A stretch of 64,000 nt of DNA from positions 4,672,001-4,736,000 of the forward strand of contig OZ242296.1 of NCBI GenBank assembly GCA_965207735.1, read 5' to 3'. Below are positions 7,118-58,073 of the stretch, piece after piece (position 1 is the stretch's first letter; each line of letters starts with the position of its first letter). The notes under the pieces are model-generated. The model had not been told where the DNA came from, searched no databases, and was given only the letters and a program-made list of their open reading frames with translations. A program made the translations under genes and the position numbers. This stretch comes from Candidatus Versatilivorator sp. (lineage in GTDB: Bacteria; Acidobacteriota; Terriglobia; Versatilivoradales; Versatilivoraceae).

Positions 7118-7166
7118 TCTAAAGCGGTGCCGGTAGACTTGTCTGAAACAACCTAAAAAGACAAAA

Positions 7167-8653
7167 GAGCCTTTTGCAAAATTCGCAGATAGCGGGAATT
7201 TTCACGTGGGGAAAGATCAAGGAGGGCAGGTGGAAGGAGGGGCAAGACCACTGTCTGTTGTATCATGAAGGTGTCTGAACCACATGATGAACGGAGGTGG
7301 AACTTGCCCCTTAGGGAAACCCTATCACGACACTGGTTCCGGTTTCAACGAGAGCTGTTTCCCCTGCTGGAGGAAGTTTTGGGGCCTCTGGGAGAGCGTT
7401 ACCAGCGGCTGGTGCAGGTATTGGAGTTGGTGCGGGTGGAGGAGTTGCTGCCTTACAGTCGGGGCTGGCGTGGCCGGCCGCTGGAGGATCGGGCAGTGCT
7501 GGCGCGAGCCTATCTGGCGAAGTCGATGCTGGAGGTGGCGACCACGCGGGGATTGGTGGAGCGGCTGAGGAGTGAGGGGAGGCTGCGGCGGCTGTGCGGC
7601 TGGGAGAGGGCGTGGGAGGTACCGAGCGAGTCGACCTTCTCGCGGGCCTTTGCGGAATTCGCTGAGAGCGACCTGCCGGGGCGTTTGCACGAGGCATTGC
7701 TGGAGGAGACGCTGAAGGGCCACTTGGCGGGGCATGTGTCGAGGGACTCGACGGCGATTGCGGGACGGGAAAAGCCAGCGGCCAAGGCTGCGCCGGAGGC
7801 CAAGCGGAAACGCCGGCGGGGCCGGCCGCCGAAGGGCGAGCGACGGCCCAAGCGGTTGAGCCGGCTGGAGCGGCAGGGGTCGATGACGCTGGAGGAAATG
7901 TTGAAGGAGTTGCCCAAGGCCTGCGACATCGGCGTCAAGCGCAACGCCAAGGGGCATCAGGAGAGCTGGACCGGCTACAAGCTACACCTCGACGCCATTG
8001 ACGGCGGGATTCCGGTCAGTTGTCTGCTGACCTCGGCCTCGGTGCATGACTCTCAGGCAGCCATTCCGCTGGCGACGCTGACGGCAAGGCGGGTCGAGAG
8101 TCTCTACGACTTGATGGACAGCGCCTACGATGCGCCGGAGATCCGGGCCTTCAGTGAGAAGCTGGGGCATGTGCCGATTATTGACGTCAACCCCCGCCGA
8201 AGAGCTACCTTGAAAGCCGAGCGGAAGCGGGAGGCACTGGCCCGGCGCTGTATCGGCCAAGTGACTCCCGAGGCGCGGCGCTACCGGGAACGCTCGACGG
8301 TGGAGCGGGTCAACGGACGGCTCAAGGAGGAGTTTGGCGGGAGGCAGGTGAGGGTTCGCGGCCCCGACAAGGTGAGGTGCCACCTGATGTTCGGCATTCT
8401 GGCCCTGACGGTGGATCAGTTGATGCGCCTGACGCTCTGAAGACCGGGTTGCCACCCCCAACCGCACAGCAGGTTCGCCCGCCTCAAGGCCGGGAGAGGG
8501 TAAGCTGTGCCTGCGTCCGGCGACCGCTGGCCATCCGGCCATCAGATTCGGGCTTTTTCCTTCAAAAGGGTCTTTGCAGCTGGGTAGTCACCGCCGGAAC
8601 ATCACTGTTGCCAGCCCAATGTCATGCCCGATTCCGAATTTTGCAAAAGGCTC
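7167..8653 (+). mobile_element. insertion sequence, IS1182/IS5-like DDE element, copy 1 (1487 bp)
   Basis: Perfect 19-bp terminal inverted repeat GAGCCTTTTGCAAAATTCG; AAAA on both flanks (apparent 4-bp target duplication); second copy at 54877-56363. Confidence 0.92.
7265..8440 (+). CDS. DDE transposase (IS1182/IS5-like)
   Basis: Motifs PSESTFSRAF, SRDSTAI, GYKLHL, DSAYD, YRERSTVERVNGRLKE. Confidence 0.92.
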   Translation: MKVSEPHDERRWNLPLRETLSRHWFRFQRELFPLLEEVLGPLGERYQRLVQVLELVRVEELLPYSRGWRGRPLEDRAVLARAYLAKSMLEVATTRGLVERLRSEGRLRRLCGWERAWEVPSESTFSRAFAEFAESDLPGRLHEALLEETLKGHLAGHVSRDSTAIAGREKPAAKAAPEAKRKRRRGRPPKGERRPKRLSRLERQGSMTLEEMLKELPKACDIGVKRNAKGHQESWTGYKLHLDAIDGGIPVSCLLTSASVHDSQAAIPLATLTARRVESLYDLMDSAYDAPEIRAFSEKLGHVPIIDVNPRRRATLKAERKREALARRCIGQVTPEARRYRERSTVERVNGRLKEEFGGRQVRVRGPDKVRCHLMFGILALTVDQLMRLTL

Positions 8654-8810
8654 AAAAGAAAAAGACATTTCCACGAAGGGGCACGAAGAACGACGAAGGG
8701 GCACTAAGGCGCTGAGGTTTGCCGCGACGGGGTACCAAGTTCGCGAAGGGGTGGTCGATTTCAGATTGTTTCACTCTATGTATGATCCGCACACTAGGGC
8801 GGGGGCCCGG

Positions 8811-8979
8811 CTTGCCTGAAACAACAGAAAAAAAGAGTTATCCACGAAGGGCCACGAAGGACGACGAAGGGACACTAAGGCGCTGAGGTTAACCGCGACG
8901 GGATACCAAGGTCATGAAAGGATTATCGATTTCCGATTGTTTCACTCTCGAATGATCCGCCCGACAGGGCGGGGCGAAA
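8811..8979 (-). mobile_element. IS110-end non-autonomous element E2 (169 bp), in tandem with E1
   Basis: CTTGCCTGAAACAAC is the exact reverse complement of 58053-58067. The other end TTGTTTCACTCTCGAATGATCCGCCC matches the IS110 left end. Internal CACGAAG decamer repeats. Confidence 0.85.
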
Positions 8980-9025
8980 CTTGTTAGCAATTGATAATCC
9001 CCGGGCGAACGCCCGGGCGACCCAT

Positions 9026-9131
9026 TGAGCCGCGGAGCGGCGGCAGCAGGTAGCCGTGGGCGTGAGCCCATGGAAAGGAGTAGCTCCACGTCGAGCCGCG
9101 AAGGCGGCGGCAGCAAATGCCGGTGAGCCCA
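9026..9131. repeat. REP-like palindrome cluster
   Basis: AGCCGCGGAGCGGC / AGCCGCGAAGGCGGC hairpins and CCGTGGGCGTGAGCCCATGG. Confidence 0.55.
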
Positions 9132-9158
9132 AGTGAAGCACAAGCCGACGCAATGATG

Positions 9159-9538
9159 TTTGTTTGAAACAATGCCTTGTGCCGGGAAACCGGTTCAAAG
9201 GCACGCATGGGTAGTTGGTTTATTAACATGGATGCACAGGATGCACAGGATTATTTTTCGAGAGATTCCACCGTGTTGAGTTCAACCATCGCCTCTGTTC
9301 CAACACAGATTTCCCAAAACCCGCTCCCAGGCTCTTGGATCACTTCCAACACCCACCCGATCATCAAGCGGGTCTGCTTCTGTGGTACAGCCTCTCGTGC
9401 TGTTAGTCCTGTTTATCCTGTGCATCCATGTTCAATAAGTAAAAACCGGTTTAGCACGACTTGGCCCTTGTTTCCGACAGGCCATGAAGATGCGTTGTTT
9501 CACACTCGTATGATCCGCCCACCAAGGCAGGGGCGGGA
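9159..9538 (-). mobile_element. IS110-end element E3 carrying ACAGGAT-type inverted repeat cargo (the outer end could instead be 8980)
   Basis: Degenerate end TTTGTTTGAAACAAT; conserved end GTTGTTTCACACTCGTATGATCCGCCC...GGGA|CT; internal AACATGGATGCACAGGAT...ATCCTGTGCATCCATGTT. Confidence 0.6.
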
Positions 9539-9625
9539 CTTATCAGAACAGTCGTGAGAGGGCGAACGATCCGGCGTCCGGCAGGGTGTGCGCGCCGGTG
9601 GATCGGCCCCGACCCGGGAGGCCCC

Positions 9626-12019
9626 ATGGAAGGGACATTCCTTCGCGTACGCCGGTGGGGGCCAGGGCTGCTGTTATTGCTGGCGGCCGCCTTCTGCCTG
9701 AGCCCAGCGAATGCCTCGACCGTTCCCGCGGCCGAGGAGGCTGCAACCCGGGATCGGTCCCTTCGCTGCTCCATTGTCCTGGGCCCCGAAGCGCCCGACC
9801 TGGAAGTCTTCGCTGCCCATGAGTTGATCCGCTATCTGAGAGAGCTCTACGGCATCCGGTCGGAGCTGGTCCGGTCGCTGGAGGACGGCTCGGGACTCGG
9901 CATCCTCCTGGGGAATCCCCAAACCAATCCCGCTTTTCAATCCATCTCGGCTCATCACACCTGGCCGCGGGTGAGCGACCAGGGCATCGTCCTGAAGCGG
10001 GTGAGCGCCGGAGACAGGGATCTGCTCATCCTGGGGGGAGGCAGCCCGGCGGCGACCCTGTGGGCGGTCTACGAGCTGGTGGAACGCTCGGGCGTCCGTT
10101 TCCTGCTGGAGAAAGACGTCTTCCCCGAAGTTGCGGAGCCGTTCCCGCCCCGGCAACTGGACCTGGTGCGGGAGCCCCGCTTCCGGTTTCGTTCCTACCG
10201 CGCCATCAACAACCTGGCCACCTCTCTCATCTTTTACGGAATGAAGGACTACCGACACCTGATCGACCAGTTGGCCAAGATGAAGTTCAATGTCCTCTAC
10301 GCGCAGATCTATCCGCACCAGCCCTTCGTTCACTACCAGATGCGGGACCAGCCCAAGGTCACCGGGGTTCTGCACTATGGTTGGAAGGTCCCGATTCATG
10401 CGGAGACCATCGGCCGGGAGCTTTTCGACGGGCGAAGCCAGCTGGTGAACCCGGAACTGGCCGGCGCCACCACCTACCGGGAACGGGTGCGAGCCGCCCA
10501 GGGACTGCTGCACGAACTGTTTGCCTATGCCAAGCGCCGCGGCATGCAGACCGGTCTGAACTTCAGGATCAACCAGTTCACCAACGAGTTCAACTGGAAG
10601 CTGCCCCAGTGGTCGGAGCACAAGTACTTTCCCGAGGAGGCCATGAAGGGTGCGCGCAATGCCCGCCTGGGAATCTCGGAATACGCCGTGGACCCGCGGG
10701 CGTTTCCCTACATGACGCCCGACAACCCCGCCGTCATGGAGCTGAACAAGACCATCATCCGGGCTCACGTCAACACCTATCCGGAAGCGGACTTCTATGG
10801 ATTGACCCAGCCGGAGCTGCCGGGAGGCGGAGAGAAGTACCGGGAGATGTGGGAGCGACTGGACCGCAAGTACCGGCTGGAACCGGAGTTCAGCCTGGAT
10901 CGGATGCTGGAGTCGGCCAAGGCCAACACCCTGCCGGTGGGCGTGCGCAGGGGGGACCGGCCGGTGGAAGAGCTCAAGGGAGCCCTGGCCAACGCCGATA
11001 CGCTGGACAAGCTGCTCAACGAGGGCGGGATCCTGAAAGGGACGGCCAATCCCGAGGCCACGGTGGTGGTGAGCACCTTCAGCGACGAATTCTATCCGGT
11101 CATGCCCAGGATCTTCCCGGGTCGGGTCATGTTGATGGTGCCCATGGACTACCTGACCTCACTGGCTGCCGAGCGCACCGAAATGCTGGCCTTTGCCGAG
11201 CACAGTCCCATGAAGGTGGCGATTCTGGCCACACTGGCCGACGACAACATCGGCATCCTCCCCCAGTTGCCCACCCAGCCGCTCCATCGCATCTTCCAGG
11301 CCATGGAGCGCTATAACGTCGTCGGCTACTTCGGCCGGCAGTTCCTGGTCACCAAGCTGGAGGCGGGAACCGCCTACATGGCTCAGGCCTCCTGGTCCTC
11401 CGGGGTCACCCCCGAGTCGGTCTACCGGGATCAGGTAAGGCAGGTGTGCGGGGAAGGGGCAGTTGCCGACATGCTCGAAGCCTACCGCATCCTGGAAGAG
11501 GCCACTCTCATTGGAGACCGGGTGGCCATGGGATTCCTTTTCCCGGTCACCACCATGATGCGCAAGCACTGGAATTCCGATTCCGGGCCCAACCCGGGAT
11601 GGGACGAGTTGCGGGCTCACTACCTCAAGGCGGCGCCGCTGGTGGAGTCGGCGCTGCAAAAGAGTCGCCCCCAGGGGAAGAGCTACTTGCAGCAGCTATT
11701 GGGACAATTGAATTTCGGCACCGACTACATCGCCGCCGTGCAGGAAGTGCGCCGGGCCAGGCTGTCCTACCTGCTATCCAGGAAGGCGCTGGCCGACAAG
11801 GACGCCCCGGGCTACGAACGAGTCATGAACGAAACCAATGACCGGCTGGAGAAGGCCCTGGCCCTGCTGAAGTCGGCCATCCGGCACTGGGCCGGAGCGG
11901 TCAGGGACCCCTCCGACCTTGGGGCCCTGGGCGCCCTCAACAGCTTTTGCTACGACTATCTCAAGGGCGTGGCCCTGGACGTCTACCTGGAGTCGGGAAC
12001 CTGGAGCATTCGGTTTTAA
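9626..12019 (+). CDS. large secreted glycoside hydrolase-like protein (GH20/GH115-like N-terminal domain plus barrel)
   Basis: GGAGG RBS; hydrophobic signal; motifs FAAHELIRYL, GGSPAATLWAVYELVE, PRFRFR, IDQLAKMKFN. Confidence 0.6.
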   Translation: MEGTFLRVRRWGPGLLLLLAAAFCLSPANASTVPAAEEAATRDRSLRCSIVLGPEAPDLEVFAAHELIRYLRELYGIRSELVRSLEDGSGLGILLGNPQTNPAFQSISAHHTWPRVSDQGIVLKRVSAGDRDLLILGGGSPAATLWAVYELVERSGVRFLLEKDVFPEVAEPFPPRQLDLVREPRFRFRSYRAINNLATSLIFYGMKDYRHLIDQLAKMKFNVLYAQIYPHQPFVHYQMRDQPKVTGVLHYGWKVPIHAETIGRELFDGRSQLVNPELAGATTYRERVRAAQGLLHELFAYAKRRGMQTGLNFRINQFTNEFNWKLPQWSEHKYFPEEAMKGARNARLGISEYAVDPRAFPYMTPDNPAVMELNKTIIRAHVNTYPEADFYGLTQPELPGGGEKYREMWERLDRKYRLEPEFSLDRMLESAKANTLPVGVRRGDRPVEELKGALANADTLDKLLNEGGILKGTANPEATVVVSTFSDEFYPVMPRIFPGRVMLMVPMDYLTSLAAERTEMLAFAEHSPMKVAILATLADDNIGILPQLPTQPLHRIFQAMERYNVVGYFGRQFLVTKLEAGTAYMAQASWSSGVTPESVYRDQVRQVCGEGAVADMLEAYRILEEATLIGDRVAMGFLFPVTTMMRKHWNSDSGPNPGWDELRAHYLKAAPLVESALQKSRPQGKSYLQQLLGQLNFGTDYIAAVQEVRRARLSYLLSRKALADKDAPGYERVMNETNDRLEKALALLKSAIRHWAGAVRDPSDLGALGALNSFCYDYLKGVALDVYLESGTWSIRF

Positions 12020-12049
12020 CCTGAATCCAGACAAGGCAAGGAGGACCTC

Positions 12050-12940
12050 TTGCAGACCGTCAGAGTGGCCGCAATTCAAATGAATGGATACCTGGGGCAG
12101 GCCGAGCGAAATCTGGCGGAGGTGGAATGCTGGACCCGCAAGGCCGCCGAGCAGGGCGTGGAGATGGCTCTTTTCCCGGAGCTTGCCATCCACGGCCACT
12201 GGATGGCGGAGGAGTGCTGGTCGTCGGCCGAGCCGGTGCCGGGAGGCCCCAGCGTCCGGCGCCTGGAGCAGATCGCCCGCGAGTTCCGCATGGTGCTGGC
12301 GGTGGGCATGTCGGAGAAGGAGAGGGATCTGGTCTACAACTGCCAGGTCCTGGTCGGCCCCGACGGCTATCTGGGCAAATCCCGCAAGGTGCACATGTCC
12401 GAGGACGAGGGTCTGATGTACGTGGGGGGCGGCGCACTGCCCGTGCACGACGTGGGGAAATGCAAGGTGGGCGTCATCGTCTGTTACGACGCCATGTACC
12501 CCGAGGTTGCCCGCGTCCTGACCCTCAAGGGGGCTGAAGTTTTCCTGATGGCAAGCGCCGGCCGCAGCGGTCCCTGGACCAAGGAAACCGAGGAGGCGGT
12601 GGCGCGCCGGACCAAGGAACAGCTCAGTCTCTATCGCTTCCGCGCCATCGAAAATGGAGTCTTCGCCGTGATCACCAACCAGGCCGGTGCGGCAGGCACG
12701 GTGGAGTTCTATCGTCCCGAATATCGCCGCCAGCCCTACCACGCCGGTGGATCGCTGATCTTTGCTCCGGACGGCAAACTGCTGGCGGAGTCCCGGACCC
12801 GGAAGATCGAAGCCGACATGGCCGTGGCCGACCTGACGGCCGAATCCTTTGCCAAAGCCCGCGCCAATACCAACTTTACCCTGCGCAAGCGCCGCCCCGA
12901 TCTCTACCAGGAACTGCTGAGACCGATCACCAGGGATTGA
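12050..12940 (+). CDS. carbon-nitrogen hydrolase (nitrilase/amidase family)
   Basis: Catalytic E-K-C motifs FPEL, RKVH, CYD; TTG start preceded by AAGGAGG. Confidence 0.88.
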   Translation: MQTVRVAAIQMNGYLGQAERNLAEVECWTRKAAEQGVEMALFPELAIHGHWMAEECWSSAEPVPGGPSVRRLEQIAREFRMVLAVGMSEKERDLVYNCQVLVGPDGYLGKSRKVHMSEDEGLMYVGGGALPVHDVGKCKVGVIVCYDAMYPEVARVLTLKGAEVFLMASAGRSGPWTKETEEAVARRTKEQLSLYRFRAIENGVFAVITNQAGAAGTVEFYRPEYRRQPYHAGGSLIFAPDGKLLAESRTRKIEADMAVADLTAESFAKARANTNFTLRKRRPDLYQELLRPITRD

Positions 12941-13089
12941 GGGGTGGATGATGGCGCTTCCGGGAGCGAACCGGAATCCCGGGAGAGTCCCCCAATAACA
13001 GACGCTGAAGGGGGGGGCTTTCATCGACTGAAGGGAAGAGAGCCGGGAATGCGGTGTTTCACCGATCCGGACGACCGCGGGGGGCTCGG

Positions 13090-13488
13090 TCAGTTCAGGG
13101 TGTCCACAAGCCCCGCGTCCACGATTCTTCGGTCCTGAGTCAACAGGGTCGCCCCCAGAACCCGGGCGGTGGCCACGATTATCCGGTCTGCCGGGTCACG
13201 GTGGAAGGAGTCCGGAAGTGCGGCCACCTCCGTCGCAATTGCCGGAGTGATGCTCTGGGTCTTGACCAGCGGAGGCGCTACTGCCTTACTCAGCCACTCT
13301 CTCAGCGGCATCGCCAGCCTGATTCTGTCCAGGTTGTGCAACATGGCCACTTCCCAGAGCGAAATGTCCGACACCAGCAAGGGCGATTTTTCGCCAGCCA
13401 GCCCGAGGGCCTCCCGTTGGCCGGCCGAGAGTCGGCCTGAATGGTTGAGCCACCAGAGCAGCACGTGGGTGTCGAGCAGTAACCTCAT
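13090..13488 (-). CDS. vapC: type II toxin, VapC/PIN domain
   Basis: LLLDTHVLLWW, SDISLWEV, HRDPADRIIVATA, LLTQD. Confidence 0.92.
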   Translation of the reverse strand: MRLLLDTHVLLWWLNHSGRLSAGQREALGLAGEKSPLLVSDISLWEVAMLHNLDRIRLAMPLREWLSKAVAPPLVKTQSITPAIATEVAALPDSFHRDPADRIIVATARVLGATLLTQDRRIVDAGLVDTLN

Positions 13489-13724
13489 GGCCGCAGGCTT
13501 TCCCAATCCTCATCAGGAAACACCGGACCGACGACGTCGCCGACCTCGCGGACCGTTCCGGCCAGTTCCAACTGAGGGTACTTGGAAGGACTTCCGCTTG
13601 CGGGAAAGAGCTCGGCAACAGGCCGCCCACGCTTCAGGATGACCACGGGCTCGCCGGTCGCCTGAACGCGGTCGAGGATCGCCAGGCAGCGGGCTTTGAA
13701 ATCGGATGCATTGATGGTTTCCAT
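13485..13724 (-). CDS. Phd/YefM family antitoxin
   Basis: INASDFKARCLAILDRV...VVILKRGRPVAEL; ATGA overlap with the toxin. Confidence 0.92.
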   Translation of the reverse strand: METINASDFKARCLAILDRVQATGEPVVILKRGRPVAELFPASGSPSKYPQLELAGTVREVGDVVGPVFPDEDWESLRP

Positions 13725-13759
13725 GTGACTAGATTATGTGACTAGTCACTAACAGTCAA
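13725..13759 (-). promoter_or_regulatory. sigma70 promoter with palindromic operator for the TA pair (leaderless)
   Basis: On the minus strand TTGACT-N17-TAATCT-N6-ATG; palindrome GTGACTAGTCAC at 13738-13749 plus a half site at 13725-13732. Confidence 0.75.
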
Positions 13760-14028
13760 TAGAACTCTGTTACTTTGGTTCCGTCCTTCGATTCGCTTCG
13801 GGAAGTTGTCCCCATCCGTGTCGAGATCTTGGGGGGTTGCGGCTTGGCGATGAGCCCTCAGGGTGAACGATGAAACTCCATCTGTAAGATTTCCTCGTGA
13901 GCGCCGGCAATACGCCATTGGCTCAAGGGGGTGGAAACCCCGATCCGGCGGGGATGGAGGATGGCCGGAATCGCACTCCCGGCGCGGTGTTTCGCGGATT
14001 TCACGAGGTCCGCCAACGCAACTCTTCA

Positions 14029-14060
14029 AGCCTCTCTCCGGGGGGCTTTTTTTTCTTTCA
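14029..14060 (+). terminator. possible intrinsic terminator
   Basis: Imperfect stem GCCTCTCTCCGGGGGGC followed by a T tract. Confidence 0.4.
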
Positions 14061-14237
14061 TTTTTTTCTATTCAAATCGATGAAGCCTTGATATATATCT
14101 CCCACTCACGCTGCGCAACATTTACTTGAAGCCCCTTGATGGCAGCTGGTTTCCATTGCTGATGGGGGGCTTGTCTTCATTGCGGGAAGTCGGTGGTGTG
14201 CGGCAACATACACTTGTGAATACAAGGGGAGAAGAAA

Positions 14238-14564
14238 ATGCTAACTAGGATTCTCGTTGCTATAGTGACAGTCGTGGCGATTGTGAAAGCCTTTGCCCCC
14301 AACTTGGAGGATCAAGGTGCTCTTGGGATCATTCTGGTCCTTGCGGGCTTGGTTTATGGCGCCACGGCCGTTAACGCCGAGGATGCCACCGACTACCTGG
14401 TGGTTGCCGTCGCGGCCTCGGTTGCAGCAGGAGCCGACGTGCTGGGTGCCATCCCCGGGATCGGCGGTTATCTGGACGCCATCATCGATCAGATCAGCAT
14501 GGCACTGATCGCCTCAGTCGCCACCGTTCTGGCAGTAAGGACGATCAACCGCATCAAGGGCTGA
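14238..14564 (+). CDS. small multi-pass membrane hypothetical protein
   Basis: AAGGGGAG RBS; about four hydrophobic segments. Confidence 0.75.
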   Translation: MLTRILVAIVTVVAIVKAFAPNLEDQGALGIILVLAGLVYGATAVNAEDATDYLVVAVAASVAAGADVLGAIPGIGGYLDAIIDQISMALIASVATVLAVRTINRIKG

Positions 14565-14799
14565 CCCTCATACTCAAAGGAAGCCACCCGCCGGACCAGC
14601 GTTCCTTGACCGCTGGTCCGGCTGTATTTTTTCCGGCAAGGACGCAGGGCAGTGCGGGGTCGTACCCGAACGGCATACACGCACGGACCCGGCTAGGGTT
14701 GGGATTCCGAACCCCGACTTGCCCGCGGCCCACGACGGAAATCCTCCTTGACGATACTTCCGTTCGCCCGCGTTCACCGGAGCTGGTCTGTTCTGTCTT

Positions 14800-15180: not shown

Positions 15181-15211
15181 GGTCGGTTTCGGGGAAGGAC
15201 CGGCCGCGCCT

Positions 15212-18975: not shown

Positions 18976-19130
18976 CTTGTCTTGAACAATTGAGCGTTAT
19001 CCACAAAGCCAAAAAGAGTTATCCACGAAGGGCCACGAAGGACGACGAAGGGCCACTAAGGCGTTGAGGTTAACCGCGACGGGGTACCAAGGTCGCGAAA
19101 GGATGGTCGATTTCCGATGGTTTCACTCTT
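18976..19130 (-). mobile_element. IS110-end element E4, truncated
   Basis: CTTGTCTTGAACAAT start; body closely matches E2; stops at GTTTCACTCTT where an IS-like inverted repeat begins. Confidence 0.75.
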
Positions 19131-21189: not shown

Positions 21190-21596
21190 CCGAGCTGCGC
21201 GTGGTGCTCGACACCATTGTGCTGCTGTCGGCCCTGCTGTTCCCCGCCGGATCGTTGTCCTGGTTGCGCCATGCCTGGCAGTCGGAAGCCATCCTCCCAC
21301 TGGTAAGCCGTGATACGACGGAGGAACTGCTCCGGGTGCTGTGCTATCCGAAGTTCCGCCTGACCGCCGCCGAACGAGAAGACCTGTTGGCCGATTACCT
21401 GCCCTGGTGCGAGACCGTGATCGTGTCGAAGCCTGCGGTGGTGCTGGAATGCCGCGATTCGGCTGACAGGCCTTTTCTCGAACTCGCGCTGGCGGGCAAA
21501 GCCGATGCCTTGGTGACAGGCGACGACGACCTGCTCGCCCTGGCATCGGTGTTTTCGGTTCCGATCCTTACCCCGAATGCAATAAGAGATCGCTGA
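21186..21596 (+). CDS. PIN family toxin
   Basis: VVLDT, CRDSADRPFLELA, ALVTGDDDLL; ATGA overlap with the antitoxin. Confidence 0.9.
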   Translation: MTELRVVLDTIVLLSALLFPAGSLSWLRHAWQSEAILPLVSRDTTEELLRVLCYPKFRLTAAEREDLLADYLPWCETVIVSKPAVVLECRDSADRPFLELALAGKADALVTGDDDLLALASVFSVPILTPNAIRDR

Positions 21597-21768
21597 AACA
21601 AAAGAAAAAGACAAAAGGAAAAGAGTTATCCACGAAGGGACACGAAGAACGACGAAGGGCCACTAAGGCGTTGAGGTTCACCGCGACGGGGTACCAAAGT
21701 CGCGAGAGGACTATCGATTTCCGATTGTTTCACTCTCGTATGAACCGCCCACCAGGGCGGGGGCCGAA
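21589..21768 (-). mobile_element. IS110-end element E5 (IS-free version of E1/E7)
   Basis: CTGAAACAAAAGAAAAAGACAAAAGGAAAAGAGTTATCCACG...TTGTTTCACTCTCGTATGAACCGCCCACCAGGGCGGGGGC. Confidence 0.8.
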
Positions 21769-23077: not shown

Positions 23078-23290
23078 TTTCAGGCCGGTCCGCCCCCCGC
23101 TCCGGGGATCATACAGAGGAGGAACAATCGACCGCCAATAAGGGCGAACCACGAATGAACACGAATAAGCACGAATGCGGATGGAGCTCCTTCAATGACG
23201 AGCGGCACCCGAATGCTGCAGCAATTATGTGACGTTGGTGCGACGACGTCGTGGGAGGAAGCCCCCCGGGAGCGCGGGCGTCCCGCCCGC
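23078..23290 (+). repeat. degenerate IS110-end junction followed by CACGAAT decamer repeats and a REP-like hairpin
   Basis: TTTCAGGCCGGTCCGCCCCCCGC...GGATCATACAGAGGAGGAACAATC; CACGAAT at 23150, 23160 and 23170; GCGGGCGTCCCGCCCGC. Confidence 0.6.
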
Positions 23291-35460: not shown

Positions 35461-35893
35461 CCCCCGGCTCTCAAACGGGGCTATGATAGTGCAAAATCGG
35501 ACCGATTGAGGGGTTATCCGCACCGGGAATCGAAGCACCCAAATGGAAATCCAAAAAGAGTGATCCACGAAGAGGCGCCCAGCGCGGAAATTCCAGTGAT
35601 GCAATAACGTCCCCCGGTTGTCATCAATGCGTTAGGGCCCTTCAATCCCTCCCTGCCCTCGTTGGGCTCCGAAATCAAAGCTGCGTCCCAGCCGCCGCCC
35701 GCCGTCCGGTCGGATAAGCCTGTTGCGAGACAAGCTGAGATCGATAGCTGCCTACATCGGGATCTCGGCCATGAAAGTCATGAAGATAACGCGAAAAGGC
35801 CTGATTATTCACACTATTGACATGCAGCTTTTTTGCACAATTAGACTCGATGACGGGGCGGCTTGGTGCGTTGAACTCAAGGGAGGTTTTCGG

Positions 35894-38533
35894 ATGTCCG
35901 GACGAGTAATCGCAAGGGGTGTCTTGGGAGTCTGGATGGGGTGTTTCACGGCTGCGGCCGGGCTGCTTCCCGAGGCCCGGGGTCAAAGCCCTGCAGCCGA
36001 CAGGGTGGCTCTGGCGGCCCTCTTCGAAGCCACCGGTGGCGCCACTTGGAGTAATAACCGAAACTGGCTGAGTGACGAGCCTTTGGAGGAGTGGCACGGC
36101 GTCACCGTCGACGAGGGGCGGGTCACCATGCTGGATCTCAACAACAACCAACTGACGGGCGCCGTTCCGTCTGAACTGGGGGACCTCGCCGATCTGCAGG
36201 AGCTGGTTATGTCCCACAACCAACTGACGGGCGCCATCCCGGCGGAGCTGGGGAATCTCTCTAACCTGCAGCGACTGATTCTCGACAACAACCAGTTGAC
36301 GGGCTCCACCCCGGCCGAACTGGGAGACCTCGCCGACCTGCAGCAGCTGTGGCTCGACCACAACCAACTGACGGGCACCATTCCGGCCGAGTTGGGGAAG
36401 CTCGCCGACCTCCAGCTGCTGATTCTCGACCACAACCAATTGACGGGCGCCATCCCGGCCGAGCTGGGAGACCTCGCCGACCTGCAGCAGCTGTGGCTCG
36501 ACCACAACCAACTGACGGGCGCCATCCCGGCGGAACTGGGGAAGCTTGCCAACCTGCAGCATTTGGTTCTCGACAACAACGAACTGACGGGCGAGATTCC
36601 GGGGGAACTGGGGGACCTCGCCAACCTGCAGCAGCTGTGGCTCAACTTCAACGAACTGACAGGCGAGATTCCGGCCGAACTGGGAGACCTTGCCAACCTG
36701 AAGTGGCTGGTTCTCGACAACAACGAACTGACGGGCGAGATTCCGGGGGAACTGGGGGACCTCGCCAACCTGCAGCAGCTGTGGCTCAACTTCAACCAAC
36801 TGACAGGCGCGATTCCGGCTGAGCTGGGGAATCTCGCCAACCTGCAGCTGCGGTATCTCGACAACAACCAACTGACGGGCGCCATTCCGTCCGAGCTGGG
36901 AAAGCTCGCCAACCTGCAGCAGCTAGCTCTCCACGGCAACCAACTGACGGGTCCCATTCCACTGTCTTTCACCAACCTGGGGTCATTGGAATTGTTCTGG
37001 TTTCATCTGAACCCTGGTCTGTGCCATCAGCCGGGCCCCTCCATTCGGGCTTGGCTCGATGGTATCGGAGACGTCCAAGTCGCGAGCTGCCCTTTCATGT
37101 TCGTCCCCGTGCTGCTGACCTCGGCTGGGCGCAACGACGCTTTCTTCACCTCCGAGCTGACCCTGACCAACCGGGGGAGCGAAGAGGCCACCCTCGACTA
37201 CACCTACACGGCCGATGCGGGAGGCGGCAGCGGCACCGCCACCGACACCCTGCCCCCGGGGCAGCAGCGTATCCAATCCAACGCCATCGACTACCTGGCC
37301 GGCCTCGGCATCCCTATTCCCGACTCCGGAAACCGCATTGGGACCCTGAGAGTGGAGGTTTCTGGTTCCCTCGAGGTGAGCCTGACCACCCGCACCACCA
37401 CCGCCGTCCCCGACGGTCGGGCCGGCCTGGCCTACCCCTCCATCGCCGAGGAGGAGGGCTTCCAGGAAGCCGTTTACCTGTGTGGGCTGCGCCAGAACAC
37501 TCAGGATCGCTCCAACGTGGCCTTCCAGCACATGGGAGCTCCCGATGAGGGTCCCATCACCCTGAGGACCACCGCCTATTACGGGGAGGCCGACGACACC
37601 GGCTCCCTGGTGGTGGGAGAGGTGGAGCTGCAGCCGGGAGGCTTCCACCAGTACTCGGGACTGCTGGGAAGGCTGGGCACTCCGGCCCAGGGCTACGTGA
37701 AGGTGGAAAAGGTCTCCGGAGAGGCCCCGTTCTACGCCTACGGGGTCATCAACGACAACTTCAACTCGGACGGCTCCTTCGTATTTCCCCTGACCGCATC
37801 CTCCCTGGTGGGCACGACGGGACAGACCCTGCCGGTCATCATCGAGACCGGAAACTTCCAGAGCGAGCTGACGGTGACCAACTTCTCGGCCACGGACAAG
37901 ACCGTGACCTTCAGCTTCGTGGCCGAAGGGGTCGACAGAGGAGACGACACGGCCACCTTCAGCCTGAGGCTCAAGGCGGGAGAACAGCACATCCTGCCCG
38001 GTATCGTGGAGGAACTGCGACGGCGGGAGGTGGAGGGGATCGGCGGGGCTGACCGGGCCTACGTGGGAGCGCTGTTCGCCACGCCTGCCGAGGGGGACAT
38101 GAGCGGCATCGTGATCGGGGCGAGGACGGGGGCGCCGGACCAGAGAGGGGGACAGTACAGCCTCTTCTACAACGGGGTGCCCTATGGCTCGGCTTCCGTA
38201 GAGAGCGCCTGGATCTACGGGCTGCAGCAGAACGCGGAGAACCGCAGCAACCTGGCCCTGGTGAATACGGGGGAGATCGACGATACCCCCAGCACCTTCG
38301 AGATCACGATTTATGACGGCAGCGGGGAGTCTCAGCCGAGGGGCATTACCAGGACCGTCGGTCCCCACCGCTGGCACCAAGTCAACGGGATTCTGAGCAA
38401 CACCAGCCAGGGATATGTGCAGGTGCGAAAGGTTTCGGGCAACAACCCGTTCATTTCCTACGGCGTGATCAACGACGGCGGGAGGCCCGGGGAACGCAGC
38501 GGGGACGGCGCCTTCCTGCCTGCCCAGGAGTAG
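35894..38533 (+). CDS. secreted leucine-rich repeat protein (plant-type LRR) with a duplicated C-terminal beta-rich domain
   Basis: GGAGG RBS; signal peptide; LRR N-cap DRVALAALFEATGG..W..NW; twelve 24-aa LxLxxNQLTGxIPxELGxLxxL repeats. Confidence 0.9.
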   Translation: MSGRVIARGVLGVWMGCFTAAAGLLPEARGQSPAADRVALAALFEATGGATWSNNRNWLSDEPLEEWHGVTVDEGRVTMLDLNNNQLTGAVPSELGDLADLQELVMSHNQLTGAIPAELGNLSNLQRLILDNNQLTGSTPAELGDLADLQQLWLDHNQLTGTIPAELGKLADLQLLILDHNQLTGAIPAELGDLADLQQLWLDHNQLTGAIPAELGKLANLQHLVLDNNELTGEIPGELGDLANLQQLWLNFNELTGEIPAELGDLANLKWLVLDNNELTGEIPGELGDLANLQQLWLNFNQLTGAIPAELGNLANLQLRYLDNNQLTGAIPSELGKLANLQQLALHGNQLTGPIPLSFTNLGSLELFWFHLNPGLCHQPGPSIRAWLDGIGDVQVASCPFMFVPVLLTSAGRNDAFFTSELTLTNRGSEEATLDYTYTADAGGGSGTATDTLPPGQQRIQSNAIDYLAGLGIPIPDSGNRIGTLRVEVSGSLEVSLTTRTTTAVPDGRAGLAYPSIAEEEGFQEAVYLCGLRQNTQDRSNVAFQHMGAPDEGPITLRTTAYYGEADDTGSLVVGEVELQPGGFHQYSGLLGRLGTPAQGYVKVEKVSGEAPFYAYGVINDNFNSDGSFVFPLTASSLVGTTGQTLPVIIETGNFQSELTVTNFSATDKTVTFSFVAEGVDRGDDTATFSLRLKAGEQHILPGIVEELRRREVEGIGGADRAYVGALFATPAEGDMSGIVIGARTGAPDQRGGQYSLFYNGVPYGSASVESAWIYGLQQNAENRSNLALVNTGEIDDTPSTFEITIYDGSGESQPRGITRTVGPHRWHQVNGILSNTSQGYVQVRKVSGNNPFISYGVINDGGRPGERSGDGAFLPAQE
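36131..36994 (+). repeat. 72-bp coding tandem repeat, 12 units
   Basis: Recurring AACCAACTGACGGGC core at a 72-bp period. Confidence 0.9.
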
Positions 38534-47556: not shown

Positions 47557-47584
47557 GCGGATCCTCCGGTAAGTGACCTTGGTG

Positions 47585-48919: not shown

Positions 48920-48924
48920 GGACG

Positions 48925-49623: not shown

Positions 49624-49627
49624 GGAG

Positions 49628-49986
49628 TGGCGCGGCCCTCCGACGGGGCGGATCATTCGAGGGTGAAACAACCCAACATCATCAGGTTTCGGCAACAGGG
49701 AAATTTTCCGTCAAACCGGTCGGCTGCATGAGGGAACATGGATAGACAGGATGAACAGGATATAGAGGACGAAACGCTGCTGCAGAGGAAGCTGACTGGC
49801 GCGAAACGAGACGCAGGATGCCCGCAATCGGGGCAAGGCGGTTTAGGACGACAATCCTGTAAATCCTGTGCATCCATGTTAAACAACTCTTTTTGCGCTC
49901 GGGGCCGAGACCAAACGCCGGAACTTGAAGGGCGTCACTTCGTGTGTCTTCGTGGATAACTCTTTTTTTCTGTTGTTTCAGACAAT
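49628..49986 (+). mobile_element. IS110-end element E6 inserted between soxA and soxG
   Basis: CGACGGGGCGGATCATTCGAGGGTGAAACAAC is identical to the IS110 left end; right end GTTGTTTCAGACAAT; internal ACAGGAT inverted repeats. Confidence 0.85.
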
Positions 49987-52893: not shown

Positions 52894-53152
52894 GGTGGTC
52901 ATCTTCCCCATACAGGTAGGTTCGCAGGATCTCGTCGCTGGAGGTGTTGCGTTCGGCGATGAACCAGACGCCGCTGGCCAGGTGGCACCACCACTCCTTC
53001 TTGACGGCGGCGGCCCCGGAGCGGTGGAACACGTAGCCGGCCCACTGCCGGTCGGAGCATTCACCGGGCGGGGGCATCGGCCGGAAGGTGCCGCCGTAGG
53101 AAAACTCCTGAACGGGCCGCCAGCCGTTGACGGGGCAATGCATCAGCTTCAT
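52886..53152 (-). CDS. soxD: sarcosine oxidase delta-like subunit (MgdB)
   Basis: CPVNGWRPVQEF, EWWCH, ERNT. Confidence 0.9.
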   Translation of the reverse strand: MKLMHCPVNGWRPVQEFSYGGTFRPMPPPGECSDRQWAGYVFHRSGAAAVKKEWWCHLASGVWFIAERNTSSDEILRTYLYGEDDHHE

Positions 53153-53183
53153 CTGCCGTAATCCTCAGGTCCGCTGGAAGCCG

Positions 53184-54425
53184 TCAGTGCCCGACCGAGG
53201 CCGCTCCCTTTTCGCCCACCAGATCGAACTCCTCGAATCGGGAGAGTCGAAAGGGCACGATCAGGGGATGGGGCCGGTCGGTGGCCAGGGTGTGGGCCAT
53301 GGTCTTGCCGCATACCGGGGTTGCCTTGAATCCCCAGGTGCCCCAGCCGGCGTCCAGGTAGAGTCCTTCCACCGGGGTCTTCCCCATGATGGGGGAGAAA
53401 TCGGGAGTCATGTCAGCCAGGCCTGCCCACTGGCGCAGCACCCGCACCTGGCCCAGGAAGGGGAACAGCTCCAGAAGGTGTCCCGCCAGGCCCTCCACGA
53501 AATCCAGGGTCGAGCGGGTGGAGTGCAGCTCGTAGGGGTCCAGAGCGGCTCCCATGACCAGCTCGCCGCGGGACGACTGGCTGACGTAGAGGTGCAGGTT
53601 GGCCGAAACGATGATGGTGTCCAGCCAGGGCTTCAAGGGCTCGCTCACGCAGGCCTGCAGGGGGTGCACCTCCAGCGGCGTGCGAACGCCCACCATCTCC
53701 ATCACAGCCGGCGTGTATCCGGCCACCGCCGACAGGACCTTGCCGGTTTCGACAAACCCCCGGTTGGTTTCCACCCCGGCCACCCGCCCGCCCTGGACAC
53801 GGATCCCGGTGACCTCGGTCTGCTGGTGGATCTCGACGCCTCTTTGGCTAGCGGCGCGGCCATACCCCCAGGCCACCGCATCGTGGCGTGCGATGGCTCC
53901 GGGAGGGTGGTAGAGGGCTCCCAGCACCGGGGTATGCCCACCACAGCTGAGGTCCAGTTGGGGGCATTCCCGGCGGATCACCTCCGGCCCCACCAGTTCG
54001 CTGTCCACCCCCAGGTGCTTGTTGACCTCGGCCCGCCAGCGCATGGTCCGCAGGGTGGCGTCGCTGTGGGCCAGGGTGAAATGCCCCCTGCGGGAATAGA
54101 AGAGGTTCAAGTCCAGGTCGGCCGACAGATCCTGAAACAGGCGCAGGCTCTCGTCGTAGAACCGAACGCCCTCGGCCGTCAGGTAGTTGGAACGGATGAT
54201 GGCGGTGTTGCGTCCGGTTCCGCCGGCGCCCAGGTAGCTTTTCTCCAGGACGGCCACCTCCCGGATTCCGTGGTCCCGGGCCAGGTAGTAGGCGGCCGCC
54301 AGGCCATGTCCACCGGCCCCGATGATGACGGCGTCGTAGTGGGGCTTCAGCCGGTCGGGGCAACGGAACATGCGCGGTTCCGGATAGCGCCGGCTCATTC
54401 CGAATCGTAGCAAACCAAAGGGCAT
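53184..54425 (-). CDS. soxB: sarcosine oxidase beta-like FAD oxidoreductase (MgdA)
   Basis: IGAGGHG, GRNTAIIRSNY, WGTWGFKATP. Confidence 0.92.
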   Translation of the reverse strand: MPFGLLRFGMSRRYPEPRMFRCPDRLKPHYDAVIIGAGGHGLAAAYYLARDHGIREVAVLEKSYLGAGGTGRNTAIIRSNYLTAEGVRFYDESLRLFQDLSADLDLNLFYSRRGHFTLAHSDATLRTMRWRAEVNKHLGVDSELVGPEVIRRECPQLDLSCGGHTPVLGALYHPPGAIARHDAVAWGYGRAASQRGVEIHQQTEVTGIRVQGGRVAGVETNRGFVETGKVLSAVAGYTPAVMEMVGVRTPLEVHPLQACVSEPLKPWLDTIIVSANLHLYVSQSSRGELVMGAALDPYELHSTRSTLDFVEGLAGHLLELFPFLGQVRVLRQWAGLADMTPDFSPIMGKTPVEGLYLDAGWGTWGFKATPVCGKTMAHTLATDRPHPLIVPFRLSRFEEFDLVGEKGAASVGH

Positions 54426-54462
54426 GAAGTTATCCGGCGTGCGCTCCTTCGGGGCGGGGGCA

Positions 54463-54716
54463 CCACTGGCCTGAAACAACCCTGTGTCGCCGGTTCTGAG
54501 CCGCCTCGTCGTATGGGACGGCGGCGCAACCAAGTGAAAAGTGCAAAGTGAATAGTGGAGAGTGGAGAGCTATTTGATCGACCGGCACAGCATCTTGCCG
54601 GTATCGGTTCAGTCCTACAAATTAGCTCAGTCAGTTCATCAGGTGCTTGCCTGTTCCCGAAACGCTCGGCTGAGCACTCTCCACTCTCCACTGGCCTGAA
54701 ACAGCGGTGTTTCAGG
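54463..54716. repeat. heptamer inverted-repeat module bounded by 16-bp direct repeats related to the IS110 right end
   Basis: CCACTGGCCTGAAACA at 54463 and 54688; AGTGNAN tandem at 54533-54569 against CACTCTC tandem at 54675-54692; palindrome CCTGAAACA-GCGG-TGTTTCAGG. Confidence 0.7.
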
Positions 54717-54876
54717 TAGCTCCTGCCGCGCCCTACCGGGCGGATCATACATAGAGTGAAACAATCAGAAATCGATAGTCTCTTCGTGAACTTGGTATCC
54801 CGTCGCGGTCAACCTCAGCGCCTTAGTGGCCCTTCGTCGTTCTTCGTGCCCCTTCGTGGATAAGTCTTTTTCTTTT

Positions 54877-56363
54877 GAGCCTTTTGCAAAATTCGGAATC
54901 GGGCATGACATTGGGCTGGCAACAGTGATGTTCCGGCGGTGACTACCCAGCTGCAAAGACCCTTTTGAAGGAAAAAGCCCGAATCTGATGGCCGGATGGC
55001 CAGCGGTCGCCGGACGCAGGCACAGCTTACCCTCTCCCGGCCTTGAGGCGGGCGAACCTGCTGTGCGGTTGGGGGTGGCAACCCGGTCTTCAGAGCGTCA
55101 GGCGCATCAACTGATCCACCGTCAGGGCCAGAATGCCGAACATCAGGTGGCACCTCACCTTGTCGGGGCCGCGAACCCTCACCTGCCTCCCGCCAAACTC
55201 CTCCTTGAGCCGTCCGTTGACCCGCTCCACCGTCGAGCGTTCCCGGTAGCGCCGCGCCTCGGGAGTCACTTGGCCGATACAGCGCCGGGCCAGTGCCTCC
55301 CGCTTCCGCTCGGCTTTCAAGGTAGCTCTTCGGCGGGGGTTGACGTCAATAATCGGCACATGCCCCAGCTTCTCACTGAAGGCCCGGATCTCCGGCGCAT
55401 CGTAGGCGCTGTCCATCAAGTCGTAGAGACTCTCGACCCGCCTTGCCGTCAGCGTCGCCAGCGGAATGGCTGCCTGAGAGTCATGCACCGAGGCCGAGGT
55501 CAGCAGACAACTGACCGGAATCCCGCCGTCAATGGCGTCGAGGTGTAGCTTGTAGCCGGTCCAGCTCTCCTGATGCCCCTTGGCGTTGCGCTTGACGCCG
55601 ATGTCGCAGGCCTTGGGCAACTCCTTCAACATTTCCTCCAGCGTCATCGACCCCTGCCGCTCCAGCCGGCTCAACCGCTTGGGCCGTCGCTCGCCCTTCG
55701 GCGGCCGGCCCCGCCGGCGTTTCCGCTTGGCCTCCGGCGCAGCCTTGGCCGCTGGCTTTTCCCGTCCCGCAATCGCCGTCGAGTCCCTCGACACATGCCC
55801 CGCCAAGTGGCCCTTCAGCGTCTCCTCCAGCAATGCCTCGTGCAAACGCCCCGGCAGGTCGCTCTCAGCGAATTCCGCAAAGGCCCGCGAGAAGGTCGAC
55901 TCGCTCGGTACCTCCCACGCCCTCTCCCAGCCGCACAGCCGCCGCAGCCTCCCCTCACTCCTCAGCCGCTCCACCAATCCCCGCGTGGTCGCCACCTCCA
56001 GCATCGACTTCGCCAGATAGGCTCGCGCCAGCACTGCCCGATCCTCCAGCGGCCGGCCACGCCAGCCCCGACTGTAAGGCAGCAACTCCTCCACCCGCAC
56101 CAACTCCAATACCTGCACCAGCCGCTGGTAACGCTCTCCCAGAGGCCCCAAAACTTCCTCCAGCAGGGGAAACAGCTCTCGTTGAAACCGGAACCAGTGT
56201 CGTGATAGGGTTTCCCTAAGGGGCAAGTTCCACCTCCGTTCATCATGTGGTTCAGACACCTTCATGATACAACAGACAGTGGTCTTGCCCCTCCTTCCAC
56301 CTGCCCTCCTTGATCTTTCCCCACGTGAAAATTCCCGCTATCTGCGAATTTTGCAAAAGGCTC
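54877..56363 (-). mobile_element. insertion sequence, IS1182/IS5-like, copy 2
   Basis: Same 19-bp inverted repeats as copy 1, TTTT flanks and identical ORF translations. Confidence 0.92.
55090..56265 (-). CDS. DDE transposase (IS1182/IS5-like)
   Basis: Protein identical to that at 7265-8440. Confidence 0.92.
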   Translation of the reverse strand: MKVSEPHDERRWNLPLRETLSRHWFRFQRELFPLLEEVLGPLGERYQRLVQVLELVRVEELLPYSRGWRGRPLEDRAVLARAYLAKSMLEVATTRGLVERLRSEGRLRRLCGWERAWEVPSESTFSRAFAEFAESDLPGRLHEALLEETLKGHLAGHVSRDSTAIAGREKPAAKAAPEAKRKRRRGRPPKGERRPKRLSRLERQGSMTLEEMLKELPKACDIGVKRNAKGHQESWTGYKLHLDAIDGGIPVSCLLTSASVHDSQAAIPLATLTARRVESLYDLMDSAYDAPEIRAFSEKLGHVPIIDVNPRRRATLKAERKREALARRCIGQVTPEARRYRERSTVERVNGRLKEEFGGRQVRVRGPDKVRCHLMFGILALTVDQLMRLTL

Positions 56364-56443
56364 TTTTGTCTTTTTTCGTTTGTTTCAGGCGAGTCCCGCC
56401 CCCGCCCCCCACGACGGGGCGGATCATTCGAGGGTGAAACAAC

Positions 56444-56640
56444 GGATCATTGTGAAAGAATAAGCACCTGGCGAGACTCCGGCAGCTACGCCCCGTTTCA
56501 GCATTGGTGCCCCGTGCCCCAAGGCAAGTCTGGGTCCGAGCAGGTCATCATTCATTAGTGAGGCTTCCCGGGAAGTTCTCCTCAAGGCAAGAATCCGAAC
56601 GACCACGCCAACTCGGGCCGGAGCCCTCGCTCTCGAGGAG
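56444..56640 (+). ncRNA. candidate bridge RNA of the IS110 element
   Basis: About 200 nt of non-coding sequence upstream of the recombinase, with hairpins and two CAAGGCAAG motifs matching the element end. Boundaries are inferred. Confidence 0.5.
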
Positions 56641-56649
56641 GCCAATCTC

Positions 56650-58044
56650 ATGCAAAAGAGCAGGAAAGTCAACACGAAGGCGAAGAAGAAGCGCAGCCGT
56701 TCGACGGCCTTGTCGCGGATCCACCCCGAGGTGGCAGGGATCGACCTGGGGAGTCGGGAGCACTGGGTGTGCGCTCCGGAGGTAACCCCAGGGAAGCCGA
56801 ACGTGCGCACCTTCGGCACCACCATGCCGCAGTTGCAGCATCTGGCCGACTGGTTGCTGGAACAAGGGGTGGAGTCGGTGGCGATGGAGAGCACCAACGT
56901 GTATTGGATTCCCCTCTACGAACTGCTGGAGTCCTGCGGCATCGAGGTGCTGCTGGTCAACGCCCGGCAGTTGCGCTACGTTCCGGGCCGCAAGACCGAC
57001 ATGCGGGACTGCCAGTGGATCCAGTTGCTGCACAGCTGCGGCTTGCTGCGGGGATCCTTCCGTCCGCACGAGGCGATCGTCCGGGTTCGGACCCTGCACC
57101 GGCAACTGAGCACTCTGGGGGCCGAGAGTACCCGCTTTGTGCAGTGGATGCAGAAGGCGCTGGATCAGATGAACGTCCAGATCCATCGTGCGGTCACCGA
57201 TCTGACCGGTCAGACGGGGATGGCGATCGTGCGGGCGATTGTCGACGGCGAACGGGACCCGGTCCGTCTGGCGGGTCTGCGGGACCGACGGTGCAAGAAG
57301 TCCAGCCGGGAGTTTGCCGAGCACCTCACGGGCAACTGGCGCGACGAGCATCTGTTCAACCTCAAGTCGGCGCTGAAGCTCTACGACATGACTCAACGCG
57401 AGATTGCGGCCTATGAGGCCCGCATTCTGGAGGAAATCCAAGCGCTGCAACCGGTGGAGCGCCGCGACCAGCCCGTGCCGAAGCATCCCAATGCGATCAA
57501 GGAAAAGGCGATTAGCCGCCGAGGCGGGCACCACCTGCGCACCGAACTGTGGCGCTTTGCCGGGGTCGATCTGACGCGCATCGACGGCATCGGCACCGAA
57601 GCGGCCCTGACCCTGCTGACTGAGGCCGGCCTCGACCTGACGGCCTTCCCCTCGGAGAAGCACTTTGTATCCTGGCTGCGCCTGGCTCCAAAAACGGCCG
57701 TCTCCGCAGGCAAGCCGCTCCACTACAAGAAGGCCAACAGCACCGGGTCTACTCGCGCCGCCGCCGTCCTGCGCATGGCAGCCGTCTCTCTGAAGCACTC
57801 CAAGACCGCTCTGGGGGCCGCCTTCCGTCGCAAGGCCCGCCACAAGGGATGGACCGTCGCCGTCTTCTCCATGGCCCGCCGGCTGGCCGTTCTCGTCTAC
57901 CGCATGCTGCGCTACGGCCAGGACTACATCGACATCGGGGAAGCGTGCTACGAAGACCGGTTCCGGAGACGCCGCCTCGCGGGCCTCAAAGATGCTGCTA
58001 AGTCTCTTGGTTTCAACCTAGTTCCACAAATCGCAGCCGCTTGA
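56650..58044 (+). CDS. IS110 family transposase (DEDD recombinase)
   Basis: GIDLG, AMEST, KTDMRD, IDGIG, SAGK; GAGGAGG RBS. Confidence 0.95.
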   Translation: MQKSRKVNTKAKKKRSRSTALSRIHPEVAGIDLGSREHWVCAPEVTPGKPNVRTFGTTMPQLQHLADWLLEQGVESVAMESTNVYWIPLYELLESCGIEVLLVNARQLRYVPGRKTDMRDCQWIQLLHSCGLLRGSFRPHEAIVRVRTLHRQLSTLGAESTRFVQWMQKALDQMNVQIHRAVTDLTGQTGMAIVRAIVDGERDPVRLAGLRDRRCKKSSREFAEHLTGNWRDEHLFNLKSALKLYDMTQREIAAYEARILEEIQALQPVERRDQPVPKHPNAIKEKAISRRGGHHLRTELWRFAGVDLTRIDGIGTEAALTLLTEAGLDLTAFPSEKHFVSWLRLAPKTAVSAGKPLHYKKANSTGSTRAAAVLRMAAVSLKHSKTALGAAFRRKARHKGWTVAVFSMARRLAVLVYRMLRYGQDYIDIGEACYEDRFRRRRLAGLKDAAKSLGFNLVPQIAAA

Positions 58045-58073
58045 ACTGCGGGGTTGTTTCAGGCAAGCTCAGC

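Follow-up and report, generated by a model that had tools for sequence, protein, structure and literature searches.

The 64,000-nucleotide stretch of DNA analyzed in this work (the window; G000:C1:4672001-4736000, within G000, the 5.26-Mb single-contig genome of Candidatus Versatilivorator sp.) contained a complete IS110 element together with short gene-less units bearing the same two ends, referred to here as minis (Table 1; G001-G013 designate the genomes of relatives and L numbers individual loci or homologs). Judging from the sequences, the minis were likely moved in trans by the IS110 recombinase and a predicted bridge RNA whose equal target and donor guides would regenerate the landing site, units then stacking on each other. 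A first-pass annotation of the window had proposed that the recombinase mobilizes variable cassettes in trans and stacks them in an integron-like way. Among the elements to which it attributed IS110 ends, both ends were recognized at 7138-8810, 8811-8979, 9159-9538, 49628-49986, and 54720-56393, whereas 18976-19130 and 21589-21768 were partial; its degenerate traces at 23078 and 54466 were present and worn, and the head-to-tail joints that it placed at 8811 and 56392 were found at 8811-8812 and 56392-56393, each through one AG/CT.

The right-end motif occurred 268 times in the genome with at most one mismatch (5.3 expected from Markov simulation) and the left-end profile gave 376 matches in the genome vs. 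1 in the reversed genome. At minimum scores of 14 bits for left ends and 16 bits for right ends, the profile census of G000 yielded 337 and 335 of them, respectively (6 right ends in the control), and pairing of partners at these thresholds within 3.6 kb gave 251 left/right pairs, 241 of them without recombinase and 10 corresponding to full IS110 copies, 97-100% identical in nucleotide sequence to each other. The presence of the ends on other IS110 copies had been put forward as a decisive point, and both ends were found in 10 of 10; every copy, moreover, sat directly behind the right end of a mini. Grouped by their adjoining sequence, left ends belonged to class A (192, about 180 bp) and to classes B (52), C (17), D (11), and E (9), while 20 minimal units of 57-68 bp consisted of the two ends and nothing else; at least six kinds of gene-less units were distinguished in G000. 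Minis made up about 1.3% of the genome, and complete units spanned about 2%.

Stacking was frequent and involved unlike units. A right end directly preceded 135 of the 337 left ends, and 162 units formed 56 head-to-tail arrays of 2-7 members joined through one AG; classes were mixed in 35 of these arrays and unlike classes met at 62 of 106 junctions. Likeness was 87% between neighboring class A units and 85% between random pairs (P = 0.03 for 39 pairs), no neighbors reaching 97%, and 19 near-identical pairs, including identical units of 182 and 183 bp, were located at different loci with different neighbors, each directly behind a right end. This indicated that units move singly and that arrays are not duplications; tandem duplication was thereby ruled out as the main source of arrays.

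Comparison of filled and empty sites in relatives, as the first-pass annotation had suggested, revealed precise empty sites. In the ortholog comparison, which covered 2.0 Mb of three relatives, both flanks were recovered for 10 of 120 arrays of G000 (2 exact empty sites, 1 near, 1 of the same length, and 6 with other content) and, conversely, for 15 of 32 arrays of the relatives (4 exact empty, 2 same, and 9 other), giving 6 exact empty sites with one AG plus 1 near in 25 comparisons. A flank-anchored scan of 2.4 Mb detected 121 indels, 14 of which ended in the right-end motif; seven of these were clean insertions from left end to right end at one AG (four overlapping the ortholog comparison), and at three sites a unit had been added behind a right end already in place (G000 3240157, 3895033, and 3185263). 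Empty sites carried CAG(G/A)CAAG or a near match on the left, the right half having no common sequence, and right flanks displayed no consensus beyond a lean toward CC. Within G000 itself, empty sites were mostly confounded by repeats and one paralog family was usable. The site of the IS110 copy of the window was represented in G013 only by GGTTCAGGCAAG|CTC, the other 12 relatives presenting mostly different repeat stacks or none.

The recombinase combined the DEDD RuvC-like and Transposase_20 domains of the IS110 family, matched NF033542 with 220 bits (cut-off 140), and had its closest homologs in Terriglobia or Candidatus Versatilivorator. Residues D32, E80, D117, D120, and S352 were invariant in 11 homologs, the acidic residues and the serine being presumably catalytic. 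Recombination at a dinucleotide core without target duplication, as in the IS110 family, was reflected in the single AG kept by empty sites. The non-coding region was located upstream of the gene (256 bp, vs. 23 bp downstream) and not downstream as in the IS1111 group, with which the element shares subterminal inverted repeats (GTGAAACAAC / GTTGTTTCA, the left copy 40 nucleotides inside). For this 256-bp left end a two-armed fold was predicted in which 15 of 31 pairs showed compensatory changes among 29 homologs; it would represent the guide-bearing structured RNA of the family, as suggested by sequence covariation. No bridge RNA match was obtained in Rfam for the left non-coding end and no promoter was found for the predicted RNA by a sigma-70 scan, while single-sequence folding was uninformative (z 0.34).

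Guides were sought in 56 sequences. Among the 43 that could be parsed, 9 represented close kin or truncated loci and were set aside, leaving 34. The first variable 8-mer, the predicted target guide, matched the DNA left of the insertion with a score of 139 (permuted mean 77, maximum 96; n = 31) and the last variable 8-mer, the predicted left donor guide, matched the own right end with 148 (permuted mean 71, maximum 98; n = 30), scores that may retain some bias, as boundaries were located using the guides, even though permutations re-optimized the match; homologs, moreover, are not independent. Swapped guide/end controls were not significant. A second candidate donor guide matched, in the same sense, the left-end site lying 19-28 nucleotides inside, behind the GC hairpin (201; permuted 152.7, maximum 172), and gave no signal against that site when tested as reverse complement. 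Covariation tests showed no clear signal for a right-target guide (104 of 5000 permutations in the best of 12 tests, without correction). The first base of the left end equaled the base behind the target guide in 30 of 31 homologs. In all 10 genomic copies the predicted target and donor guides both read AAG(G/A)CAAG, and in each of these 10 copies, as well as in 14 of 15 close homologs, the G/A of the donor guide followed that of the own right end. Since both guides are the same, insertion likely regenerates the target.

A cycle consistent with these data can be outlined. The predicted bridge RNA would be made from the left non-coding end, and the recombinase would join the right end of a unit to its left end at the AG, giving a circle that would insert at TTTCAG(G/A)CAAG; the same word would be left at the new right end, so that the site could be used again. 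The target would be one-sided, comprising the left half and the core plus a preference for the TTTC of real right ends, and interiors may have been captured from neighboring repeats. Extra GCAAG or ACAAG was also seen behind the terminal right ends of four arrays (G000:C1 4521617, 758739, 3821730, and 4930007), perhaps because the AG located five bases upstream had been used.

A sister IS110 variant, 80% identical, carried unequal predicted guides (AAGGTCAG for the target and GAGACAAG for the donor). Its left end occurred 44 times in G008 and G013, and the 30 examined (23 minis of 64-65 bp and 7 helpers, i.e., IS110 copies with the recombinase) were preceded by GGTCAG (26), GGTTAG (2), or GATCAG (2), in keeping with its target word GGTCAG. 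None of the 30 followed the sister's own right end, although one followed the right-end-like GTTTCAGGTTAG. Exact junctions numbered 96 in G000 and 75, 52, and 165 in the relatives with the equal-guide element, vs. 16 in G013, which harbors both variants, and 7 in G008. These data bear on an alternative in which the same enzyme and minis act but stacking proceeds through half-matches of the donor loop, donor with donor, the equal target guide being incidental. Half-match reactions of IS621 (accessible part of 10.64898/2026.08.31.748434), the left-donor matches retained by tandem units beside IS110 elements (accessible part of 10.64898/2026.08.14.744561), and the approximately 50 times greater use of real right ends than of other guide matches are in line with it. 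The sister donor guide, however, fits the right ends of its own element, yet all 30 left ends examined follow the target-guide word, and in the equal-guide system a preference for the target guide persists where no right end precedes the left end (agreement at 4-5 of 5 target-guide bases in 32 of 100 cases vs. 3% of random AG sites). We therefore regard this alternative as improbable.

Stacking through equal guides also has to be set against several less favorable observations. Left ends followed 123 of 224 AG(G/A)CAAG sites at right ends vs. 13 of 1214 other such sites, the latter count using a strict pattern that detects 220 left ends; because the guide match alone fails to explain site choice, the protein may also read the conserved TTTC on the target. 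The G/A of the target guide fitted the left neighbor in just 7 of 10 copies, the donor guide of homolog L035 mismatched its right end, 86 of the 337 left ends lacked a paired right end, and the sister control comes from two related genomes. Class A was mostly old or mosaic (median nearest-neighbor identity 0.92; 4 of 154 identical), and G009 and G011 contained 102 and 14 junctions with no helper detected in either.

The diversity of class A and the arrays of G009 without helper would, together with the occurrence of unit interiors outside the ends, also fit an older repeat resembling repetitive extragenic palindromes (REPs) or their mosaic elements, spread by another transposase, gene conversion, or tandem duplication, which the IS110 element targets and from which it took its ends. 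The end layout was nevertheless common to homologs down to 53% identity, with guides covarying with it; minis bore the left-end variant of the resident helper in G004, G013, and G008; and the low likeness of array neighbors and the empty sites broken exactly at the AG do not agree with such an origin, which we consider very improbable. In G009, an intact-looking orphan left end with bridge RNA (L111 / L265, G009:C1:3636664-3636898) was followed by an unrelated gene instead of a recombinase and had no right end within 12 kb, consistent with past activity; the surrounding open reading frames look to us like PIN-domain toxin-antitoxin genes.

End-targeting recurred in more distant relatives, since TTTC was present at the right-end position of the left flank in 8 of 30 distant homologs, L055 lay behind another IS110, and L299 behind a mini. 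Pairs of complete IS110 copies in head-to-tail order, with one AG at the joint, were found at L020/L024 (G013:C1:313510-316576) and at L055. Distant homologs (L290, L292, L296, L297, and L305-L307) target short tandem repeats (GTGTCAG, GTTCAG) or a palindromic repeat ending in GGAATCCAG.

Regarding their content, the units at 7138-8810 and 54720-56393, previously listed among short elements, each proved to be a mini of about 185 bp split by a 1487-bp DDE transposon. This transposon (IS5/IS1182-like, scoring below NCBIfam cut-offs) has inverted repeats distinct from the IS110 ends and was present in 43 near-identical copies in G000, 15 of them in class A, flanked by 4-bp duplications. The two copies of the window were identical whereas their host minis differed at about 25 of 160 positions, which indicated independent insertions and, together with the many transposon copies outside class A, excluded a single 1.67-kb cassette moved whole. 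Class A sequence also flanked 10 of 15 copies of a group II intron, 4 of 21 of an IS1380-like element, and 3 of 16 of an IS1634-like element, names that we take from the protein sequences; by comparison, minis occupy only the 1.3% or so of the genome given above. The group II intron-like element encodes a reverse transcriptase of 456 amino acids, and the 10 copies mentioned had all entered class A-type sequence at an identical site, CTTCG|TG (copies are located, for instance, at G000:C1 1237201, 4519506, and 409339).

All long open reading frames recognized inside paired ends belonged to nested mobile elements, and no passenger gene was recognized among the 51 non-IS110 units of at least 290 bp. 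Class A matched the CACGAAG repeats flanking intact GxxExxY (PF13366) genes of relatives in 154 of 154 cases, and in 11 of 11 cases class B covered, at about 75% identity, the flank and initial codons of such a gene. Class E resembled class A with a miniature DDE element inside the left end. No gene cargo was recognized, and the intact GxxExxY genes lay outside the ends (a left end at 0 of 20 loci). Interiors may have been captured by insertion into a minimal unit or by use of a distant right end. The GxxExxY genes of the genus (L346-L365) were enclosed by CACGAAG, ACAGGAT, or CACGAAT repeats and had remnants lacking the gene beside them, in what looks like a separate repeat system.

Integrons combine attI/attC sites with a tyrosine integrase and stack unlike units site-specifically at a regenerated site. 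The present arrays resemble them in stacking unlike units and in the regenerated insertion site, and differ in being RNA-guided, in the enzyme class, and in that insertion is possible at any junction. Because interiors are debris of GxxExxY-gene flanks and not gene cassettes, the term integron-like holds for the geometry and not for function; instead of a single platform with integrase, attI, and promoter, 56 arrays were scattered over the genome, a helper being present in 10 of them, although no search for IntI was made. A true integron-like system, in which the host retains arrays for useful cargo such as regulatory RNA or DNA sites, would account for the variable interiors, the regenerated site, and an intergenic site holding different stacks in different species. 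The lack of recognized passenger genes, the position of intact GxxExxY genes, the scattering of arrays, and their absence from G001 and G010 speak against it, and it is the least probable of the explanations considered. The system is selfish DNA with no passenger function evident.

The closest described counterpart is ISPpu9/MITEPpu9 (ssr9 module) of Pseudomonas putida KT2440, in which circles of the MITE are transposase-dependent (PMC12288879, accessible part). There too, according to the same portion of that source, the unit accompanying the IS110 helper has no genes, and hence no transposase, but carries both helper ends with their AG core and shares one AG with the helper when adjacent, and the end layout is likewise AG, 8 nucleotides, a GCCC-N4-GGGC hairpin, and AAAC, with TTT-N6-AG at the right end. 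ISPpu9 lands in REP palindromes, its left target CTGTAGGAG being unlike its right end TTTGATGAGAG, whereas here the target is the right-end word itself; MITEPpu9 has 8 copies of one kind, vs. 241 units and mixed arrays of up to 7 in G000. The ISPpu9 protein was not among the plasmid matches listed, the likeness observed being one of end layout. The present system would be a variant of the ISPpu9/MITEPpu9 kind marked by self-targeting, high copy number, mixed arrays, and an unusual predicted guide layout.

With IS621, as described in the accessible part of PMC11208160, the element shares a DEDD recombinase, a long left non-coding end, a two-loop RNA with target and donor guides, and a dinucleotide core, and the base behind the target guide agrees with the one that opens the left end, as expected of an IS621-type handshake guide. 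Protein similarity to IS621 was remote (E = 2e-11), and in contrast to its four guides, with right guides complementary to the top strand by the core, here the target guide is the same as the donor guide, no guide for the right target was recognized, and the predicted second donor guide reads in the same sense as its site, which is displaced by 19-28 nucleotides and lies behind the hairpin. A target stem-loop for ISPpu10 (10.64898/2026.03.19.712850) and many variant bridge RNA folds (10.64898/2026.10.21.760802) appear in accessible parts of those sources; neither equality of the two guides nor a displaced donor guide of the same sense is described in the accessible parts of these two, PMC11208160, or PMC13626964, and no such report was found in literature outside subscription journals, ISfinder, and the bioRxiv supplements cataloguing variant folds. 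That this clade of bridge recombinases truly uses a non-canonical layout, in which two donor guides read the same strand past an extruded hairpin while the target guide is one-sided, and that equal guides amount to self-priming RNA-programmed stacking of anything between 60 bp of ends, with stacking or dispersal switchable by few RNA bases, we hold to be about evenly balanced. If the layout is right, bridge RNAs would have another mode of DNA recognition, and a tool for iterative, ordered DNA insertion with a 60-bp donor suggests itself.

As regards tandem arrays, 10.64898/2026.08.14.744561 reports non-coding units repeated in tandem next to IS110 elements (468 cases); in its accessible part insertion is said not to regenerate the target and in-place duplication is speculated. 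Accumulation of non-coding repeats next to IS110, with left-donor matches kept at boundaries, is common to both; here, unlike there, units differ from their neighbors, move singly, lie mostly far from the helper, and have their target regenerated. The present arrays would thus be a natural case of IS110 insertion that appears to rebuild its own target, contrary to that source, with the sister element as built-in control, and they offer a testable origin for tandem non-coding arrays beside IS110 elements and for hypervariable intergenic mosaics, in which complete units attract other mobile elements.

Table 1. Components of the IS110 system and related elements, in window positions
Feature	Position	Strand	Remarks
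Class A mini, unit 2 of two-unit array	7138..8810	-	Both ends
Second DDE transposon copy	7167..8653	+	Inside mini 7138-8810
Class A mini, 169 bp, unit 1 of two-unit array	8811..8979	-	Both ends
Class B mini, 380 bp, worn right end	9159..9538	-	GxxExxY-gene 5' flank and first codons
Empty target CCAGACAAG	12027..12035	+	G002 has a 138-bp mini at the same AG
Worn right end and class A body	18976..19130	-	No detectable left end
Class A mini, good left end	21589..21768	-	Right end truncated at TTGTTTCAG
Worn right end/left end junction, then class C body	23078..23127	+	
359-bp mini, ACAGGAT repeats and CACGAAG tail	49628..49986	+	Both ends
Worn minimal element (~65 bp)	54466..54530	-	
Second right-end trace	54691-54705		Beside the 54466 element
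Class A mini, head-to-tail with IS110 through AG 56392-56393	54720..56393	+	Both ends
Unrelated DDE transposon (IS5/IS1182-like, 391 aa)	54877..56363	-	Inside mini; 4-bp duplication
Autonomous IS110 element, 1674 bp	56394..58067	+	1 of 10 full genomic copies
Left end: 8 nt behind AG core, GC hairpin, GATCATTC site, GTGAAACAAC repeat	56394..56443	+	
Left-end site GATCATTC	56422-56429	+	
GTGAAACAAC subterminal repeat	56434-56443	+	
Predicted bridge RNA, two-armed fold	56471..56628	+	Compensatory changes in homologs
Predicted left target guide AAGGCAAG	56521..56528	+	Covaries with DNA left of insertion, 31 homologs
Predicted second donor guide CATCATTC	56546..56553	+	Same sense as left-end site behind hairpin
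Predicted left donor guide AAGGCAAG, identical to target guide	56584..56591	+	Matches own right end
IS110 DEDD recombinase, 464 aa	56650..58044	+	PF01548 + PF02371; NF033542
Right end GTTGTTTCAGGCAAG, AG core at its end	58053..58067	+	

Some further features were observed in the window. Inverted repeat modules AGTGGATAGTGG / CACTCTCCACT at 6169-6336 and 54546-54690 belonged to the kind of site targeted by the sister IS110 variant. An Rfam Acido-Lenti-1 match (9028-9073) was located within a repeat whose edge ATTGCTAACAAG recurrently receives the first units of arrays. Finally, positions 35723-38533 encoded a leucine-rich-repeat protein of 936 amino acids with ten 72-bp repeats.

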